From positions 64,992 to 128,991 of the forward strand of contig SHZF01000002.1 of assembly GCA_009692425.1 (NCBI GenBank): a stretch of 64,000 nt of DNA. The letters are read 5' to 3'. The stretch is from Myxococcales bacterium. Lineage in GTDB: Bacteria > Myxococcota_A > UBA9042. A program made the translations under genes and the position numbers. This document shows, piece by piece, positions 3,911 to 13,592 of this stretch. The notes beneath the pieces were generated by a model that ran no database searches, had not been told where the DNA came from, and saw nothing but the letters and a program-made list of their open reading frames with translations. Position 1 is the first letter of the stretch; every line of letters begins with the position of its first letter.

Positions 3911-6130
3911 GTGCAAGAATTACCGAATCGACTGCCTTTCTGCGAGTTGGATCGTGAAAGTTATTCGGCACGGTCCCTTGTCGCTGGTTGGGTCGCCAAG
4001 TTCGCGGCTGAATCCAACTCATCGCGACGTGAAGGCGATCGACTTACTCTTGCACGCATCCTGATCGCGTTGCGTCCGGTGTCGCCGCGCGCCCGAGTCG
4101 GTGGCCTTGCCGTCGTTGCTGGCCTGCTGTCGGTCGCGTGGTTGTGGCTTCCGAACCGCGCGCCGGCAGAGCGCCTGCCCAGCCTGCGTGACGCCCCATT
4201 TGCAGCATGGGTGGCCGCGCTCCCTGCGGGCGGCGCCGCGTCGAGCCGTGGCGCGCCCCTTGTCCTGGGGCCAGTTGAAGCCGGCGTGCGCATTCAAGCC
4301 GGGGCCTGCCGATTCGAGGTACTGGCGGCCGAACGCGCCCCGTCCGATGCGCTGCGCAGTCGCAATTTCGCCATCACCGCCGACCCGACACGGCGTGTGG
4401 ACGCCGTGTGCGATCCGGTGCGCCGTGCTCTGGTGGCCGGGCTCCAAGCCTGGGACGTCGCGCTGCCAGGCATCCGCGCCGGTGGCGAAGTGCCGGCGCG
4501 ATCGGCCCTCGATGCGGCGCTGGTCACCCTTGCCGCCTTTCTCGACGGGGTTGTCGCTGTCTGCGGCGTGGCCCTCGTGTTCGGGTTGGGCGCCCCGCTC
4601 CGGACCCTGTTCGTCGTCGTCGCAGCGCTCGCGTTTGCCGCGCGGGCCGCGTGGCCTCACGCCCTGACGGCCGTGGGGTTCGGCTACGAATGGTTCGCCG
4701 ACGCGGCGTTCCTGCACAGCGTGCCGCGCTACGGTCCGGGCGCGCCGGCGCTGTGGGGCAAGTTGCTGGGCCCGCTGACCCATGACCACGGCGCCGTGCT
4801 GTGGTTGCACGCCGCGCTGGGGTCGATCGCGTGCGGCATCTGGGCGGCGTTCGTTGCGACGGCGCGCGGCTCGCTGCGGGCGGGCTGGCTCGCCGGCGGC
4901 GCGCTCGCCTTGACGCCCCTGTTCTTGCGCGAGCACACCAGCGAATCGATGCACACGGCGGTTGTCCTGGGCCTCGGCCTGGCGGCTCTGGCGCTGGCGC
5001 AGCCCAGACCTGCGCGCGGCGTTGCGGCGGCGGCGTTCGTCTGGGCCGTCGGCTGGCGCGTCGATGTGGGACCTGCCGCGGTCCTCACCCTGTCGGCTCT
5101 GCACTGGGCCCGGCGCGAGCACCGCCCGGGGTCCGAAGCGGCGCTGCCCGGTCGTCCTGGGTCGCCCGCACGGTGGCTGCTGCCGGCGCTGGCGGCGGGT
5201 GCCGGGTTGGTCGCGCTGGCCGTCTTCGCGCAAGGCCGCCTTGCCGCTGACCTCCACCAAGGTAACCTCCCGCAACTGCAAAGCTATCTCTCAGGACTTG
5301 GCTCGCGCCTGGCGGGCGAGGCGTTGCCGTGGCGGGCTGACTGGTTTCCCGTCGGGGTGTGGCTCGCCGTGCTGCTCGCGATCGCGCAAGTGCCCGGTCG
5401 CGCGCCGTGGCGCTGGCTGGCCGTCGCCGCAAGCGGGCTGCCGTGGCTGCTGCTGTCGTGGCTGGACTTCAACGAAACGTCGCTGCCCCGGCTGCAGGCG
5501 CCGGCGGCGTGGCTGGCGGTCGTCGCGGCGGCGGGCCTGGCGGATCTCGCGCTGGAGAACGTGTCGCGCCCGCGTGTCGCCGCGACGGTGCTGGTCTTCG
5601 GCTTTGCGTCGAGCGCCGTTCTGACCTTGCCGCAAGTCCTGCGCCGCACGAACAGCCACCTCGAAGACGACCTGCTGCGCGAGGCGATCGCCGCCCTGCC
5701 GAACGAGCGTCCGTTCGTACTCGCGACACGCACCTACGCCGAAGGCCCGGCGATCGGCCTGCACCTGCACCAGCCGACGTACGCGCTGCAGCCGCCGGCA
5801 CTGCCGGGCACCGTCGTCACCGCGACCGCCATGCTCGAGGCCCTGCGTGCGGGAACGCTCCCGCACGGCGAGTTGTGGTTCCTGCGCAGTCTGCGTTGCT
5901 ACCTCGGTCCCGTCGGCTCGCCCGCCGCGGGCCGGGAGCATCCGGCGTGTGCGGCGCTGGCGGCATGGCCGGGAGCGGTGGCCGCGTTCGAGCGTGACGT
6001 GCCGAATCGGGGGGAGTCGCCGACGTTCGACGGCTACGGCAAGGCCCGCACGCTGCGCGTCGGCCTGTACCGCTTGCCGGAGACGCTCAATCGAACAGGA
6101 TCAGCCGCGGCAGTTTTGGCGCCGCCTTGA
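3911..6130 (+). CDS. Multi-pass membrane protein, possibly GT-C-like; start codon uncertain
   Basis: About 10 or more hydrophobic segments followed by a soluble C-terminal domain; no diagnostic motif recognised. Confidence 0.55.
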   Translation: MQELPNRLPFCELDRESYSARSLVAGWVAKFAAESNSSRREGDRLTLARILIALRPVSPRARVGGLAVVAGLLSVAWLWLPNRAPAERLPSLRDAPFAAWVAALPAGGAASSRGAPLVLGPVEAGVRIQAGACRFEVLAAERAPSDALRSRNFAITADPTRRVDAVCDPVRRALVAGLQAWDVALPGIRAGGEVPARSALDAALVTLAAFLDGVVAVCGVALVFGLGAPLRTLFVVVAALAFAARAAWPHALTAVGFGYEWFADAAFLHSVPRYGPGAPALWGKLLGPLTHDHGAVLWLHAALGSIACGIWAAFVATARGSLRAGWLAGGALALTPLFLREHTSESMHTAVVLGLGLAALALAQPRPARGVAAAAFVWAVGWRVDVGPAAVLTLSALHWARREHRPGSEAALPGRPGSPARWLLPALAAGAGLVALAVFAQGRLAADLHQGNLPQLQSYLSGLGSRLAGEALPWRADWFPVGVWLAVLLAIAQVPGRAPWRWLAVAASGLPWLLLSWLDFNETSLPRLQAPAAWLAVVAAAGLADLALENVSRPRVAATVLVFGFASSAVLTLPQVLRRTNSHLEDDLLREAIAALPNERPFVLATRTYAEGPAIGLHLHQPTYALQPPALPGTVVTATAMLEALRAGTLPHGELWFLRSLRCYLGPVGSPAAGREHPACAALAAWPGAVAAFERDVPNRGESPTFDGYGKARTLRVGLYRLPETLNRTGSAAAVLAPP

Positions 6131-8288
6131 CCGCGACCTCGAACTTGCGCAGTTCCTCGTCGAACATCGCCTGCACCCGCGTCTTGCGTTCGTCTTCGTC
6201 GAGCAGGATCGCATCGCGCAGCAGGTCCTTCTCCTGGCGGTCGCGCCCCTCGTCGAATTGCTGGCGCAGCGCGAACTGTTGGCCCAGTCGCTCTTCGCGG
6301 ATTCGCACGAAGACGGCGCGCACGCTGTAGCCGACCTCGCCGGTGCCGAACAGGATGTACATGAACGCGTTGACGACCGGCGTGCCCGAGTCGAGCAGTC
6401 CGATCACCACCTCGTCGACGGCCAACTCGAGCGCGACGTAGGCGATGGCGTTGGCGACAGCGACCGCGTTGGAAATCTCAACGATCGAATCCTGGCCGTC
6501 GTCGACCACCTTCACCTCGACCGGCGAGCTGAAATGCGACGGATCGTGGGTCAAGTTGACATGCAGAAACACGAATTTGACGTTCTTGCCCGTGTGGTGG
6601 TGGATGCGCCGCGCCTCACACTTCCTGCGCGCCTCGGGCGTCGGACTGCGCAGCGGAATGAGGACGACATAGTCGGCCTTCTTCAACTCGTTCCAACTGC
6701 GCTCGGAGCCACGGCTGTCGAATTCGATGCCGGCGACGCGCAATTCCGAGGCGCGCCGCCAGCGGCTCCACACACTCGCCACGACGACGGTGAGGATGAA
6801 CAGCGCGGCGATCTTGAAGCCATCCGGGCGCTCCGCTGAGTTCACGACCAGCACGTACACGAACACGACGAGGATGATGCGAAAGGCCCACGTCAGCAGT
6901 GCGGACGCCTTTTCGGCGAGCAGCACGGCGAACGTGTCCATCGTCATCAGCACGAGCACGCCGGTCGCATAGGCGCCGCCCTGGGCCTCGACGTCGGCCT
7001 CGAACCGCCAGTTCACCAGCAGGCAGATGCCGGTGAGCACGAGCACGAGCGGGCGGCGATACTCGATCCACCTCGGGCTCATGCCGAAGCGCGGCAGGTA
7101 GCGCGGCAGGATGTTGAGCAGGCCCGCCATCGCGCTGGCGCCGGCGAACCACAGGATGAGCAGCGTGTTGATGTCGTAGACCGTGCCGAACACGGGTCCG
7201 AGCAGCGTGTGGGCCAGGTACGACAACGCGCGCCCCGCGGCCAGGCCACCGGGAGCGAATTCCTTCAGCGGAACGAGCGTGGCCGTGACGATCGAACTGC
7301 CGACGAGGCCGAGGCTCATGATGATCGCGGCGGCGACCAGCATCTTGCGGGTGTTGCTCACACGCTCGGCGTCGTTGGCCGCCTTGACGTGCATCATGAC
7401 CGATACGCCGGTCTCAAAGCCCGACAGGCCGAGCGCGAGTTTGGGGAACACGAGCAGGCTGACCGCGGCCAGCATCCACGGTCCGCCACCGCCGAGGCCC
7501 CCCAGCGGACCGTGCTGCCCGCCCGGCTCGATCTGGTGGAGTTCGCTCAGCAGGTGCGCCGTGTCGAAGGCCTGGATCTTGGCCCACCACGCCGCGACCA
7601 GTTCGGGGTGCGCCTGCAGTTCGCGCAGGCCCGTGCCGATGATCACGGCGTTCAGCGCCATGTAGGGCACCGCGATGGCGATGGCGATGCCGATCGCTTC
7701 CTTGAACCCTTTGAGGAACACGGCTCCCAGAGCCAGGATCAGCACGGCCGTCAGCGTGACCGGGCCGAATGGCAGGTGCCCGGCAAAAATCGGGTTCGCC
7801 AGCACGTGGTGCGTCGCGTCGGCCGACGACAACGTGATCGTGATCACGAAATCGGTCATCGCGAACCCGAGCAGCACCAGCACGAGCGTCTTGCCGAGCC
7901 AGCCGAGCCGGCCCCAGCCGGTGGTCAGGCGCTCCGTCATCTTGAGCGAGCCCTCGCCGTGCGGCACGTGCTTGGCGACCATCGCGTAGACGGGCACGGC
8001 GGCGAAGAACGTGACGGCCACGAGGATCAGCGTCGCGATCGGGGCCACCGAGCCCGCCGCCATCACCGCGAGGCCCGGCGCATAGCCGAGTGAGCTGAAG
8101 TAGTCGACACCCGTCAGCCACAGGGTCGCGTACCACGGGGCGGCGTGCGGTGCAGCGGTCGCCGGGGGCTTGGCGCGCTTGTGCCCCGCGTCTAGGGTCG
8201 CCTCTCCTCCGGCAGGCGCAGGCCCAGCGGGCTGGCCGTCGCGCATCCAGTCGTGGATGCGCGCTCCAAAGGCAAGGGGCAGGGCCAT
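6087..8288 (-). CDS. APC-superfamily transporter, KimA/YdaO-like (probable K+ importer) with cytoplasmic C-terminal domain
   Basis: About 12 TM segments. DYFSSLGY resembles KimA DALSSVAY, TDFVITITLS resembles DYILTVAVS, LSGFET resembles LTGVEA, AYATGV resembles LYAVGV (KimA motifs recalled from memory). Confidence 0.75.
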   Translation of the reverse strand: MALPLAFGARIHDWMRDGQPAGPAPAGGEATLDAGHKRAKPPATAAPHAAPWYATLWLTGVDYFSSLGYAPGLAVMAAGSVAPIATLILVAVTFFAAVPVYAMVAKHVPHGEGSLKMTERLTTGWGRLGWLGKTLVLVLLGFAMTDFVITITLSSADATHHVLANPIFAGHLPFGPVTLTAVLILALGAVFLKGFKEAIGIAIAIAVPYMALNAVIIGTGLRELQAHPELVAAWWAKIQAFDTAHLLSELHQIEPGGQHGPLGGLGGGGPWMLAAVSLLVFPKLALGLSGFETGVSVMMHVKAANDAERVSNTRKMLVAAAIIMSLGLVGSSIVTATLVPLKEFAPGGLAAGRALSYLAHTLLGPVFGTVYDINTLLILWFAGASAMAGLLNILPRYLPRFGMSPRWIEYRRPLVLVLTGICLLVNWRFEADVEAQGGAYATGVLVLMTMDTFAVLLAEKASALLTWAFRIILVVFVYVLVVNSAERPDGFKIAALFILTVVVASVWSRWRRASELRVAGIEFDSRGSERSWNELKKADYVVLIPLRSPTPEARRKCEARRIHHHTGKNVKFVFLHVNLTHDPSHFSSPVEVKVVDDGQDSIVEISNAVAVANAIAYVALELAVDEVVIGLLDSGTPVVNAFMYILFGTGEVGYSVRAVFVRIREERLGQQFALRQQFDEGRDRQEKDLLRDAILLDEDERKTRVQAMFDEELRKFEVAVKAAPKLPRLILFD

Positions 8289-8291
8289 CGC

Positions 8292-8579
8292 CTAGTCCGC
8301 AGCGAAACCGGCGGTGGCCGCGTCGGGGCGGGCTGCGCTGGCGGCGACTTGGCGCTCGAAGCCCGCCTGCTGCTCACGGAACAAGGCTTCGGCGCGGGCG
8401 CGCCGTTCGGCCGGGTCGAGGTGGACGGCCGCGCGCAGTAACGCTTGCTCGCGCTGGCGGCGTTCCGCGGAAAACCTACGCAGGCTGATGCGCTGGCAGT
8501 CGAGCAGGCCGTCGTGATGGCCCGAGAGCCAGCCCGTGACCGCCCGGAGCGCGCGCCCCGCACGAGAATCGAAGGACAT
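8292..8579 (-). CDS. Small helical protein (95 aa) homologous to the C-terminal tail of the downstream transporter
   Basis: ATG with GGAGG about 12 nt upstream; stop codon 3 nt before the transporter ATG; 19 of 45 ungapped identities to the transporter tail by manual alignment. Confidence 0.7.
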   Translation of the reverse strand: MSFDSRAGRALRAVTGWLSGHHDGLLDCQRISLRRFSAERRQREQALLRAAVHLDPAERRARAEALFREQQAGFERQVAASAARPDAATAGFAAD

Positions 8580-8599
8580 GGTGGGAACGAACCTCCACG

Positions 8600-8760
8600 G
8601 TTTGCCGGTGGGCGCGCGCTTGCGGCCCAGGCGCGGTGAACGGCACCGAGCCCCTTGCTGTGGCCCTGCCTCGGTGATCGACACCGAGCGATGTGGCCCC
8701 GGCTCCCCGCTCCCTGGACGGGATTGGGCGGCTCCGGCCCCTGCGACGGGGTCGAAGCGG
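8600..8760 (-). promoter_or_regulatory. c-di-AMP (ydaO/yuaA) riboswitch-like structured leader, degenerate or variant
   Basis: Minus strand reads CGCCCAAUCCC-GUCCA-GGGAGCGGGGAGCC GGGGCCACAUC, then hairpin CUCGGUG/CACCGAG, GCAGGG ... CCGCAAGCG. This parallels the order of ydaO motifs, and the element lies upstream of a KimA-like gene. Confidence 0.4.
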
Positions 8761-8765
8761 CACGG

Positions 8766-8771
8766 ATTCTA
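8766..8771 (-). promoter_or_regulatory. Putative -10 element (TAGAAT) for the small ORF-transporter operon
   Basis: TANNNT hexamer immediately 5' of the structured leader. Confidence 0.35.
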
Positions 8772-8896
8772 CGCCGGTCCGGTCCCGGCGCAATGGGCAT
8801 TGCGAGGGGCAGGGTTGCAGGACCTCTGCCCAGCCGCCGCCCGCTCGCGTATACTGCCGCCCCCGCCGGCCCGGCGCCTGACCACGTGCCCTCACC

Positions 8897-10489
<1,593 letters not shown>

Positions 10490-10498
10490 TTTACAGTT

Positions 10499-11512
10499 CT
10501 AGGTGCCGCGGGCCATGTCGCGCAACTGGGCCACGCTCGTCTCGGGCAACAACAGCGCCGTCGGCGTAGCCAGGAACTTGCGCGCCCGCGGCCCGTCGCC
10601 CAGCGCCATGAGCGCCGCAGCTTGGACAGCAGCCATGTCGGCAGAAGCCGGCAATCGCTCCGCGTAACGCAGCGCATCTTCCCATTCACCCAGCCGCGCC
10701 GACGCGACCGCGAGCACGTGCCACACGTGGGTCAGTTCGGATTGCGACAGCCACGGCTCCGCGCGCGCCTGGTGGCTGAAGCGGATGGCGGCATCGTAGT
10801 CGCCGGTGTCGAAGGCAGCCCGCGCCTGGTCGAGCAGTTCGCGCACGCGGGCGTGCTTGTCGGTTTCGTGGCGCGCGGGGTCCACGTCGAGGGCCTTCAG
10901 CATCCGCCAGTTCTCGAGCGCGGCCATGCCGAGCATGATGCCCCCGAACATCCAGCCGCGCGTCAGCATCCAGGCGGCAACGAGGCCGCCGACGATGACG
11001 CCGGCCCGATAGGTGACGCGATCGGCGCGCAACGGCGTGCGGATCACCTTGCGCAGCCCGGTGCGGAGCAGCATGCCGCCGTCGAGGGGCATGATCGGCA
11101 ACAGGTTGTACAGGCCCCAGATCACGTTGATCTGCATGCCGACGTTGCACACGAGCGCGACCAGGCCGTCTGCCTGCGTGCCGGCGATGGCGAACCCGAT
11201 CGCGAGCACGAAATTCATCGCCGGGCCGGCCGCGACGATCAGGAACTCGTGCAGGGGGCGCTGCGCCGGCTGGTGGCGACAGAATCCGCCGAAGCCGGTC
11301 AGCACGACCTCCGGTTCGAGGCCGAGCAACTTGCTGACCGTGCCGTGGCCCAGTTCGTGCGCCAACGTCGAGAAGCTGCCGACGAGCACGGCCGCGATAC
11401 CGAATGCAACGCCGTGGTTGAACGCCCACATGAAAAGCATCGCGAGGATAAGGAAGTGCCAGCCCGACACCCATACCGGGATGCCCAGCAGCACGAAAAG
11501 CGGTCGCGTCAT
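10499..11512 (-). CDS. Site-2 protease (M50) family metallopeptidase with C-terminal TPR-like helices
   Basis: HELGH, AAGPAMN and NLLPIMPLDGG motifs; TM segments; helical C-terminal region. Start MTRPLF. Confidence 0.88.
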   Translation of the reverse strand: MTRPLFVLLGIPVWVSGWHFLILAMLFMWAFNHGVAFGIAAVLVGSFSTLAHELGHGTVSKLLGLEPEVVLTGFGGFCRHQPAQRPLHEFLIVAAGPAMNFVLAIGFAIAGTQADGLVALVCNVGMQINVIWGLYNLLPIMPLDGGMLLRTGLRKVIRTPLRADRVTYRAGVIVGGLVAAWMLTRGWMFGGIMLGMAALENWRMLKALDVDPARHETDKHARVRELLDQARAAFDTGDYDAAIRFSHQARAEPWLSQSELTHVWHVLAVASARLGEWEDALRYAERLPASADMAAVQAAALMALGDGPRARKFLATPTALLLPETSVAQLRDMARGT

Positions 11513-11546
11513 GGCTTCCCGGTCGGGCGGCGTCGGGCCGCGGCAC

Positions 11547-13592
11547 TCAATGTAGCACGGACGCTTGTTTCGGCACGGGGGGCTCCGCAGGTCCAGGCGC
11601 CCAGCCCGGCGCCGCTGGCGGGGCGGCTTCGGGCTCGGGCAGCCGCAACAGCCGCGGCATGTCGACCAGGCCGCGCGGAGCATGGCGCAAGGGCATCGGC
11701 GCCAGCATCCCCGGCGGCCGCTCTTCCGGCTGCGACGGGTCGGCGGCGCGGGCAGGGTCCGACGCGAACGGGTGGGCCGCCTCCAGGCACCGCAATGCAT
11801 CGAGCAGACCGGGACTGGGTGCTGCCGTGGCGTTGTCCACGGGTCCGAGCGGCGTCAGGCCCAGCTTTGCCCACAGGCACCGCTCCGCGTGCGGCACCGT
11901 CGCAAGCTCCGCAGCTGTCAGCGGCGGCGGCGGCGGCCACGGCGTCGGGTTTGGCACGCGGTACACCTGCCAACGCCCGCGTGCGTAGACGACAGGAAGC
12001 GCGCGCAGCTCCCCAGCGAAGGGTGGTGGCGCCGCAAACGGGTCGTGCCACGTGGCGATGTAGTCGTAGAAGCGGCCATGCTCCTCGAACGAAAACGTGC
12101 CGTGGTCGTCGCCGAGCGGCTGCGGGCGTGCGGCCCGGCTCCGCAGGCGCAGCGGCTGCAACATCGGGTCGGCAAAGGCCTGCGGCACATAGCCGCTCCC
12201 CGCCACATCCCACCACTCGCCGAGGTTGGTAAACGTCGGTTGCCGCAACCAGGCGCTGCCCGCCTGTCCGTGCAGTGTCAGAACGCTGGAACCATTGGGA
12301 ATCGAACGAAAGGCGTCGCGCATCCGGTCGTACTCGGCGCTCCCCAACGTCACGGCTTGCAGCGCGAGGATCGGCACGCCGGCGGCCACGACGCCGAACG
12401 CGATCGTTCCCGCCCAGGTGCGCTTGCGGGCCTGGGGCGGCGGCGCCAACACGCGCAACGGCAGGGCGCACACACCCACGATCGCGATCGCCTCAACCAA
12501 CCGCACGTTGACGTTGAAAAGCCACAGCGGCCGCAGCACCTGGCGCGGCAGCACGAAGTAGAGGACGGCCAACCCTGCCGTCGCGATCCCGAGGTAGCGG
12601 GCGCCGAGGTTATCCGCCGTATCATGGGGTTCTGACGCGTCGGCCAGTTCTAGTTCCGCCGCCTCGCGCTGGCCCTGCCGCACCGTGCCGAGCACCCACA
12701 GCGCCAGCGCGCCGAGCCAGACCGCACTGAGCATATCGCCCGGCCGCCGCAGCCACAGGTCGGCCATCGCCTCAAGGTGCTTGGGATGCGGCTGGAACTG
12801 GTCGAACATCCGGTCCACGGCCGCGCGCAACGCCGTCAGCGGCAACTGCGCTTCGACCGCGAACGCGTCGCGCCACTGGGAGCCAAAAGACGCGATGTCG
12901 ACCGAGCGCTGCGCCCACGGCAGCAGCAGTGCCACGGACGGCGCAATGCACGCGACCTCGCGCATCGGCCACAGGAGCGCCCGACTCCAGTGGCTGCGCG
13001 CTCCGAACACCGCCGCGAGCCCCGGCAGCAGCACCAGGCCGGCCAGCCAGAACGCGTAGTGCGTGACCGCCAGCAGGGACACGAGCACGGACACAACGAC
13101 GGCCTTCCACAGCGCCGGCGCACGCACCAGACTCAGGTGCGCCGCGAGCATTGCGATGAACAGCGGCAGGGCGAGCGCGACGTGGAAGTAGCCCCACATC
13201 ACGTCGGCGTTCCACATCCACGGCAGCACCGCGAGGACGAGCCACCGGCTGTGCCGGGCCTGGCGCAGCAACACGATCGCCGCCAACGGCAGCGCGGCCA
13301 ACGACAGAGCAATCACCGCCCGCGCGGCACCCTCGACCCCGAGCAGCGGCGCCAGCAGACCGACGAGGCGGTACCACAAGAAGTACGGCGTCGGCACGCC
13401 AAGGCGCTCGAAGGCGGCGGCATAGGCGGGCGTCGCGTCCCAGCGCTGCAGGATCGCTGCCACGCGCAGGTGCTGGCCCGCGTCGAGGAATGGCAGCACA
13501 TCGACCGTCGCCAGCGGGACAAGCGCCAGCGCCACGAACGCCGCGACGAGGCCCCAGAAGGCGAGGTGATAGCGGTCGGTGGGGGCCTGCAT
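11547..13592 (-). CDS. Multi-pass membrane protein, GT-C-like (putative glycosyltransferase)
   Basis: First TM followed by the LPFLDAGQH loop with an acidic residue; about 10 TM segments; soluble C-terminal domain; Pro-rich tail. Confidence 0.55.
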   Translation of the reverse strand: MQAPTDRYHLAFWGLVAAFVALALVPLATVDVLPFLDAGQHLRVAAILQRWDATPAYAAAFERLGVPTPYFLWYRLVGLLAPLLGVEGAARAVIALSLAALPLAAIVLLRQARHSRWLVLAVLPWMWNADVMWGYFHVALALPLFIAMLAAHLSLVRAPALWKAVVVSVLVSLLAVTHYAFWLAGLVLLPGLAAVFGARSHWSRALLWPMREVACIAPSVALLLPWAQRSVDIASFGSQWRDAFAVEAQLPLTALRAAVDRMFDQFQPHPKHLEAMADLWLRRPGDMLSAVWLGALALWVLGTVRQGQREAAELELADASEPHDTADNLGARYLGIATAGLAVLYFVLPRQVLRPLWLFNVNVRLVEAIAIVGVCALPLRVLAPPPQARKRTWAGTIAFGVVAAGVPILALQAVTLGSAEYDRMRDAFRSIPNGSSVLTLHGQAGSAWLRQPTFTNLGEWWDVAGSGYVPQAFADPMLQPLRLRSRAARPQPLGDDHGTFSFEEHGRFYDYIATWHDPFAAPPPFAGELRALPVVYARGRWQVYRVPNPTPWPPPPPLTAAELATVPHAERCLWAKLGLTPLGPVDNATAAPSPGLLDALRCLEAAHPFASDPARAADPSQPEERPPGMLAPMPLRHAPRGLVDMPRLLRLPEPEAAPPAAPGWAPGPAEPPVPKQASVLH

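Follow-up and report, generated by a model that had tools for sequence, protein, structure and literature searches.

Short proteins that are encoded near a transporter, or co-regulated with it, and that act on that transporter include KdpF, AcrZ, MgtS and SgrT. None of the four is known to share sequence with its target, and most of them are single membrane helices. A small protein of another kind is predicted in a 64,000-nucleotide stretch of DNA from a Myxococcales bacterium (assembly GCA_009692425.1, contig SHZF01000002.1, positions 64,992 to 128,991 of the forward strand), which is referred to here as the window. An open reading frame (ORF) of 95 codons, P0001, was found directly upstream of the gene for a 733-residue putative membrane transporter, P0002. 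Unlike the four proteins above, P0001 looks soluble and, judged by its sequence, shares its origin with one part of the presumed target, a helical hairpin near the C-terminus of the transporter, of which it is a paralogue. The reading preferred here, at a probability of roughly 0.45, is that P0001 is a young, translated, microprotein-like partner of its parent transporter.

Three described systems come closest. The best structural match to the model of the 733-residue protein was KimA of Bacillus subtilis, a K+/H+ symporter of the KUP family (6s3k, 8b70, 8b71). In both proteins a LeuT-fold membrane domain is followed by a cytoplasmic alpha/beta domain, and two KimA chains pair via their cytoplasmic domains into a homodimer; the portion of the KimA study cited for this describes no small partner (PMC6994465). 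P0002 differs from KimA in that it is only 13-15% identical to it and has no Pfam or NCBIfam match, in that no ydaO-type cyclic di-AMP riboswitch was found upstream (no Rfam match in 5500-9500), and in its helical hairpin, which is an insert that is also missing from a tail-less tier of the P0002 family. In the potassium channel MthK, according to the part of the report cited, a free copy of the channel's own cytoplasmic RCK domain co-assembles with the tethered copy, but there both copies come from one gene, the free one by internal initiation, and have the same sequence (PMC2151542). Here the relative has an ORF of its own, upstream of the parent, to which it is about 40% identical (23/58); it comprises the hairpin only, and the assembly is a modelled one. 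MicroProteins are small, consist of a single domain that shares ancestry with a domain of a larger protein, and exert their effect by binding that related domain; in the passages cited the concept is eukaryotic (plants and animals) and concerns mostly transcription factors (PMC9638782). The 95-residue P0001 resembles them in being homologous to residues of about 664-725 of its 733-residue neighbour, with which it is predicted to pair, and differs in its presumed target, the product of the adjacent gene and a membrane transporter of a bacterium.

A free-standing relative of the transporter hairpin

The features on which the comparison rests are as follows.

8592-8596, reverse strand: GGAGG, a Shine-Dalgarno-like site of the small ORF, 12 nt before the ATG at 8579, read from the sequence
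8292-8579, reverse strand: small ORF P0001, 95 codons plus TAG (ATG at 8579, TAG at 8294-8292), with predicted helices at residues 6-18, 27-50 and 56-83
8331-8513, reverse strand: residues 23-83 of the small ORF, the part with significant homology to the transporter hairpin by tail profile and BLASTP
8289-8291, reverse strand: GCG spacer between the stop of the small ORF and the transporter ATG at 8288, read from the sequence
6087-8288, reverse strand: transporter P0002, 733 residues (ATG at 8288, stop at 6089-6087), with a predicted APC/LeuT-fold membrane domain and a KimA-like cytoplasmic C-domain
6126-6335, reverse strand: helical hairpin of the transporter, residues 652-721, putative parent of the small ORF (AlphaFold2 helices 652-693 and 698-721)
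6093-6107, reverse strand: last beta-strand of the transporter, residues 728-732, predicted from the AlphaFold2 model and the alignment to return the chain to the C-domain

An initial annotation, made from the letters alone, had described an ORF at 8292-8579 that is preceded by GGAGG and stops 3 nt before the transporter ATG, and this was confirmed from the sequence. It had also described the product as a free-standing copy of the transporter's C-terminal helical tail on the basis of an ungapped alignment of 45 residues. A recount of that alignment, which joins residues 36-80 of P0001 to residues 678-722 of P0002 (nt 6257-6123), again gave 19 identities. Composition-adjusted BLASTP aligned residues 29-85 of the small protein with transporter residues 670-727 (23 of 58 identities, E 2e-8). 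A hidden Markov model (HMM) was built from 39 tails of other organisms, excluding the P0002 tail and that of its closest relative. It scored P0001 at 36.8 bits and a second small protein, P0003, at 33.4 bits, while the best of 1000 residue shuffles reached 4.6 bits. On these sequence comparisons the likeness is true homology and not an effect of composition, and P0001 is a homologue of the helical element. The contrast in charge between an acidic tail and a basic copy was likewise found, with a net charge of -4 against +2 over the 45-residue segments; for transporter residues 664-725 the value was -2, and for residues 23-83 of the small ORF it was +3.

Two details of the annotation were revised. 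The proposed upstream extension of the match (GRALRAV and GYSVRAV) falls outside the significant alignment, which in the HMM comparison covers residues 23-83. The word tail holds insofar as the segment is helical and lies near the C-terminus, but it is not a free end, as the hairpin is followed by the conserved beta-strand 728-732. P0001 matches the hairpin only, and the last-strand motif with its invariant proline is not kept. A search of the genome gave no other relative of the hairpin besides the transporter's own.

The sequencing runs listed for this DNA were four of freshwater DNA and none of RNA. Contigs assembled from the freshwater DNA runs X1 and X2 reproduce positions 7425-9000 with at most one differing letter per spanning piece. 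They contain no diverged strain over the small ORF, and the runs are possibly the source samples and not independent support.

Modelled complex

The AlphaFold2 model of P0001 had a predicted local distance difference test score (pLDDT) of 69 overall and 77-84 over the hairpin. Modelling of transporter residues 515-733 together with P0001 gave values of 0.73, 0.67 and 0.70 (median 0.70) for the interaction prediction score from aligned errors (ipSAE), and the best of three controls gave 0.00. In the calibration of the score, 58 of 80 solved complexes attained this mark, as did 2 of 110 mismatched pairs. At least 85% of the contacts were common to the runs, and the pLDDT of the partner was 71 or higher. 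In the modelled interface hairpin lies on hairpin, transporter residues 664-728 with residues 23-82 of the small protein, and the second helices run antiparallel. The predicted contacts are symmetric, with transporter residue 713 touching residue 67 of P0001 (equivalent to 709') and transporter residue 709 touching residue 71 (equivalent to 713'), as in a two-fold hairpin homodimer.

The initial annotation had taken P0001 for an accessory subunit or decoy that pairs with the tail, and this interpretation is partly supported. Pairing of the hairpins is favoured by an AlphaFold-type complex model with controls (0.70 versus 0.00), which is a model and not a measurement. Because KimA homodimerises via its cytoplasmic domains, a hairpin-hairpin contact between transporter protomers, which the small protein could imitate or block, is by analogy conceivable.

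Probable translation of the small frame

Upstream of the small ORF the locus continues as follows.

8580-8896, reverse strand: non-coding leader of 317 nt between prfC and the small ORF, with no recognisable RNA element
8897-10489, forward strand: prfC (release factor 3), divergent neighbour, with Pfam domains GTP_EFTU, RF3_C and EF-G_D2

Across the three codon positions the small ORF has GC contents of.79/.58/.83, a coding-like pattern, and the leader at 8580-8896 is flat at about.73. A scan of the leader sequence revealed no sigma-70-like promoter and no internal terminator. The initial annotation had called this leader riboswitch-like, and that proposal, together with the more general one of a structured leader, was rejected, since positions 5500-9500 gave no Rfam match at E<=1 and the fold of 8560-8896 was not unusually stable (z = -1.1; 14 of 100 shuffles were equally stable).

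The transporter ATG at 8288, whose position is in agreement with the starts of homologues in the alignment, is not preceded by any Shine-Dalgarno-like site; the junction reads TAG-GCG-ATG. In contrast, five orthologous transporters have such sites (AAGGAAG, GGAGG, GAGG and GGAG) at 6-13 nt before their likely starts. The ATG region is predicted to pair with the 3' part of the small ORF, close to its last codons, in an RNA stem within 8240-8360 on the reverse strand (z -1.96; 9 of 200 shuffles equalled its stability). A second, tight hairpin is predicted within the first 20 codons of the transporter. The missing ribosome-binding site, unlike in the orthologues, and the pairing of the ATG with the end of the upstream frame suggest, at the level of sequence, termination-reinitiation coupling of the small ORF to the transporter. 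With such coupling the small ORF would have to be translated.

Coupling could also be the whole purpose of the small ORF. Its translation would then matter and its peptide would be inert, ribosomes that end at the TAG restarting 3 nt downstream and opening the local stem. The junction, the absent transporter site that the orthologues have and the paired ATG all fit this explanation, as does the identity of P0001 and P0003 over the final six codons, the part of the frame that extends into the presumptive initiation region. We nevertheless consider it improbable, as it leaves unexplained both a conserved block in the middle of the peptide (32 of 36 residues identical in P0001 and P0003) and the retained core residues of the hairpin, and the RNA fold is only marginally above shuffles.

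Distribution and origin

A number of findings weigh against the partner reading. They concern the distribution of P0001, its divergence and composition, its start and the complex model itself, and they are given in this section and the next.

A word search of 5.8 billion proteins gave one homologue of similar length, the 100-residue P0003, which is 68% identical to P0001 by BLASTP and 72% in a two-row alignment. HMMER with the two-sequence profile against 1.84 billion representatives gave only P0001 itself and P0124, a protein of 191 residues that was rejected as a free copy, being a C-terminal fragment of a transporter. No short protein matched transporter residues 655-733 at E<=0.001, and the DNA encoding P0003 was not found in metagenome scans. 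Full-length transporter orthologues, at 63-64% identity, were present in five of the 41 genomes searched besides that of the window (G000, included in the 41). None of the five had a small ORF in the 1.5 kb upstream, and P0001 and P0003 matched only the tails of these transporters. P0001 was also absent from 36 other genomes of the family; its sole full-length match among the 37, G000 included, was the window's own. Ten other family genomes matched P0001 through the tail of a frame of 746-923 codons. Weak matches at five further loci (L025, L028, L029, L030 and L003) were dismissed as chance, being Ala/Arg-rich and without similarity to the transporter. Conserved adjacency to tail-bearing transporters thus fails beyond the genus, and the transporter does not need the small ORF, since the ORF is absent at the five orthologues and in the 36 family genomes. 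As it is confined to two sequences and missing from the orthologous loci and the family genomes, the small ORF is, from the sequences compared, a genus-level insertion. In one orthologue genome, G013, prfC is also the divergent neighbour (76% identical), and the gap is about 170-200 nt, depending on the start chosen, against 608 nt here.

The small ORF spans the parental segment right up to its terminus, and the same trinucleotide, GCG, follows the stop codons of both the small ORF and the transporter. For these reasons the insertion may have arisen in two stages, a tandem duplication of the transporter gene via GCG microhomology and then the disappearance of the greater part of the upstream copy. 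When the transporter was compared by tblastn with 8289-8900, the hairpin match already described was the sole result (E 7e-7), and nothing corresponding to preceding portions of a duplicated gene was seen. The duplication is not recent, as, of 57 bases compared at each codon position, the small ORF and the parental hairpin have only 34 (position 1), 31 (position 2) and 24 (position 3) in common. In a tree of the tails the small ORF stands on a long branch off a polytomy, which gives it no resolved placement. In pairwise comparison the tail of P0005 matches it best (25/47), ahead of that of its own transporter (22/54), a ranking that dates nothing firmly.

The main alternative explanation is that P0001 is the decaying remnant of a tandem transporter duplicate, the upstream copy being mostly deleted, and has no function of its own. 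The frame would be open only because stops are rare in DNA of 69% GC and because the two lineages are close. We regard this as a substantial possibility, though not the favoured one. Its restriction to the genus is as expected of a remnant, many long spurious ORFs nearby indicate that frames easily stay open in this DNA, and pseudogenisation of the transporter does occur in the family (G003, fragments only). Against it, the transporter lacks its own Shine-Dalgarno site, so the upstream frame probably must be read. Further evidence on both sides comes from the divergence of the two small ORFs.

Divergence and selection

Comparison with the closest lineage (P0001 with P0003, P0002 with P0004) assumes that P0003 and P0004 come from one lineage. 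The adjacency of these two and their common organism are assumed, which is itself a weakness of the partner reading. The values obtained were:

Whole transporter, P0002 against P0004: 654 of 728 identical
Parental tail, P0002 against P0004: 78 of 84 identical
Least conserved 95-residue window of the transporter, P0002 against P0004: 79% identical
Disordered N-terminal linker of the transporter, P0002 against P0004: 14 of 27 identical, plus a 5-residue insertion or deletion
Small ORF, P0001 against P0003: 68 of 95 identical, plus one in-frame insertion or deletion of 5 residues

The small ORF (68-72%) thus falls below every 95-residue window of the transporter (minimum 79%), and its branch in the tree is about five times as long as that of the parental hairpin (0.38 versus 0.07). 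As the fastest-evolving stretch of the locus it behaves as a remnant would. Its Ala and Arg contents are high (22% and 17%), and GC at second codon positions amounts to.58 where the parental tail has.32, as relaxed selection or drift under GC pressure would give. Twelve columns of the hairpin are at least 80% conserved in the 39 foreign tails. The small ORF keeps eight of them (F, R, E, L, R, R, F, F); at each of the other four an acidic residue has been replaced (D to S, D to R, D to A and E to Q). The loss of these residues and of the conserved last strand also suits a remnant, and Fisher tests on the conserved columns were not significant (p 0.15 and 0.19). The spacing of 12 nt between the Shine-Dalgarno-like site and the ATG is long. 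In the complex model the alignment of the partner consisted of two rows only, and a paralogue of a self-packing hairpin may pass such modelling by likeness alone. Predicted interface positions are about as variable as the rest, at 7 of 32 and 9 of 28 respectively (residues 23-82, counted by hand), a difference that is not significant.

Evidence of constraint was nevertheless found. The frame is open in both P0001 and P0003 despite 28-32% divergence, and the sole insertion or deletion is in frame. The changes are clustered (runs test p = 0.006), the identities by block being 17/18 for residues 1-18, 6/14 for 19-32, 32/36 for 33-68, 7/21 for 69-89 and 6/6 for 90-95. The small ORF is more conserved than the disordered linker of the transporter (14/27), and 11 of the 12 conserved hairpin columns are identical in P0001 and P0003, both of which keep the Phe/Arg/Leu core. 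The clustering, the in-frame change, the conservation above that of the linker and the kept core all argue against a decaying remnant. By sequence, the small ORF is intermediate between a constrained and an unconstrained protein.

The block of 17 identical residues among the first 18 lies outside the region significantly aligned to the tail. Together with the replaced acidic residues, which would give a different surface, it would fit a small protein that functions elsewhere, for example with another partner through its conserved N-terminal helix 6-18, the likeness to the hairpin being historical only. This is very improbable. The genome has no relative of the hairpin beyond the transporter's own, the close coupling of the small ORF with the transporter speaks for a common task, and nothing in the analysis indicates another partner.

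Proposed origin and mode of action

If P0001 is a partner of its parent, the following course of events can be envisaged. The 3' end of the transporter gene would have been partly duplicated and placed directly before the same gene in an ancestor of the genus, where the duplicate would persist as a translated ORF of 95 codons encoding a two-helix hairpin. This copy would have retained the hydrophobic and arginine core, whereas the anchoring last strand and four acidic residues conserved in the family would be gone. Both proteins would be made from one message via translational coupling. The small hairpin would dock antiparallel on that of the transporter in a four-helix bundle with pseudo-two-fold symmetry, and so mimic the contact of the hairpins of two protomers or compete with it. 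P0001 would then correspond, in a bacterium, to a microProtein whose target is the parent protein. The fullest version of this proposal is less likely, namely that a newly born microprotein, derived from a dimerisation hairpin and coupled to the transporter in fixed proportion, caps the parental hairpin and thereby sets the oligomeric or regulatory state of the transporter.

Transporter fold and family

P0002 had no meaningful Pfam match (two noise matches at E<=1) and nothing meaningful in NCBIfam. No match to AA_permease_2, AA_permease or K_trans was obtained, and no PDB chain matched the transporter in sequence. The AlphaFold2 model, made from 66 homologues, had a pLDDT of 89.2 and a predicted template modelling score of 0.84. 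The top Foldseek matches of this model were the KimA structures 8b70, 8b71 and 6s3k (E 1e-12 to 2.5e-10, about 620-630 columns), followed by NKCC1/NCC, ApcT, AdiC and LATs, and at least 302 PDB matches were obtained at E<=0.001. Chains of ApcT, AdiC, LAT and CAT superposed on the model with template modelling scores, normalised to the target, of 0.65-0.76 and a root mean square deviation of about 5-6 A. The nearest Atlas clusters were named amino-acid transporter or APC permease. The C-domain of the model consists of strands and helices at 521-647 together with strand 728-732. The membrane domain of P0002 is, according to the model, of the APC superfamily LeuT fold (5+5 inverted repeat), with a KimA-like cytoplasmic alpha/beta domain. 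The label KimA/APC given in the initial annotation therefore holds for the fold, for which Foldseek ranked KimA first, but is not shown to extend to membership of the sequence family (no K_trans match) or to K+ as the substrate.

The family of P0002 is very large, with at least 8000 candidates at E<=0.001 in a word search. The 120 homologues listed (P0004-P0123) are unnamed or called hypothetical, and none of them has a precomputed Pfam domain; the named organisms of the close tier are Myxococcota or 'Deltaproteobacteria' assemblies. From the model, this looks like an unannotated transporter family with a confidently predicted KimA-like APC fold.

A hairpin segment of about 53 residues was present in 41 of the 66 aligned homologues, all of them from the tier at least 54% identical to P0002, and was replaced by a clean gap in 25. 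These 25, namely 24 from the tier at 46-50% identity and P0063, keep the last strand. The hairpin is thus a two-helix insert of about 55 residues, with a conserved helix before it and the conserved last strand after it, and P727 is invariant in the alignment (A1). P0063 (656 residues, 64% identical to P0002) lacks exactly the hairpin. As the last strand is nevertheless retained in it, the fold can seemingly form without the hairpin, provided that P0063 is no artefact of assembly or gene calling.

Two tail-bearing paralogues, P0067 (714 residues) and P0072 (711 residues), for each of which the longest contig has a length of 201046, may share one contig, which, if so, would be a precedent for duplicated copies of the transporter gene. 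At G003:C115:67914-68594 (L014 and L016) two transporter fragments only, corresponding to residues 44-114 and 365-514, lie side by side and are taken for a degraded copy.

Neighbouring genes

An ORF of 739 codons at 3911-6130 on the forward strand, without a Pfam family, is convergent with the transporter gene, and their 3' ends overlap by 44 nt (6087-6130). Its GC content by codon position is.77/.58/.81. Beyond prfC, a predicted M50-family peptidase with C-terminal TPR repeats is encoded at 10499-11800 on the reverse strand, convergent with prfC.

Significance

If P0001 is a remnant only, the locus is an ordinary duplication scar. If the small protein does bind its parent, the locus shows the birth of a regulatory subunit from its own target. 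The steps would be the partial duplication of a self-associating element, the loss of its anchor, a change of charge and translational coupling, all within one genus, and the unmodified orthologues in relatives would serve as natural controls. The locus also highlights a very large family of KimA-like APC transporters for which there is no Pfam model.

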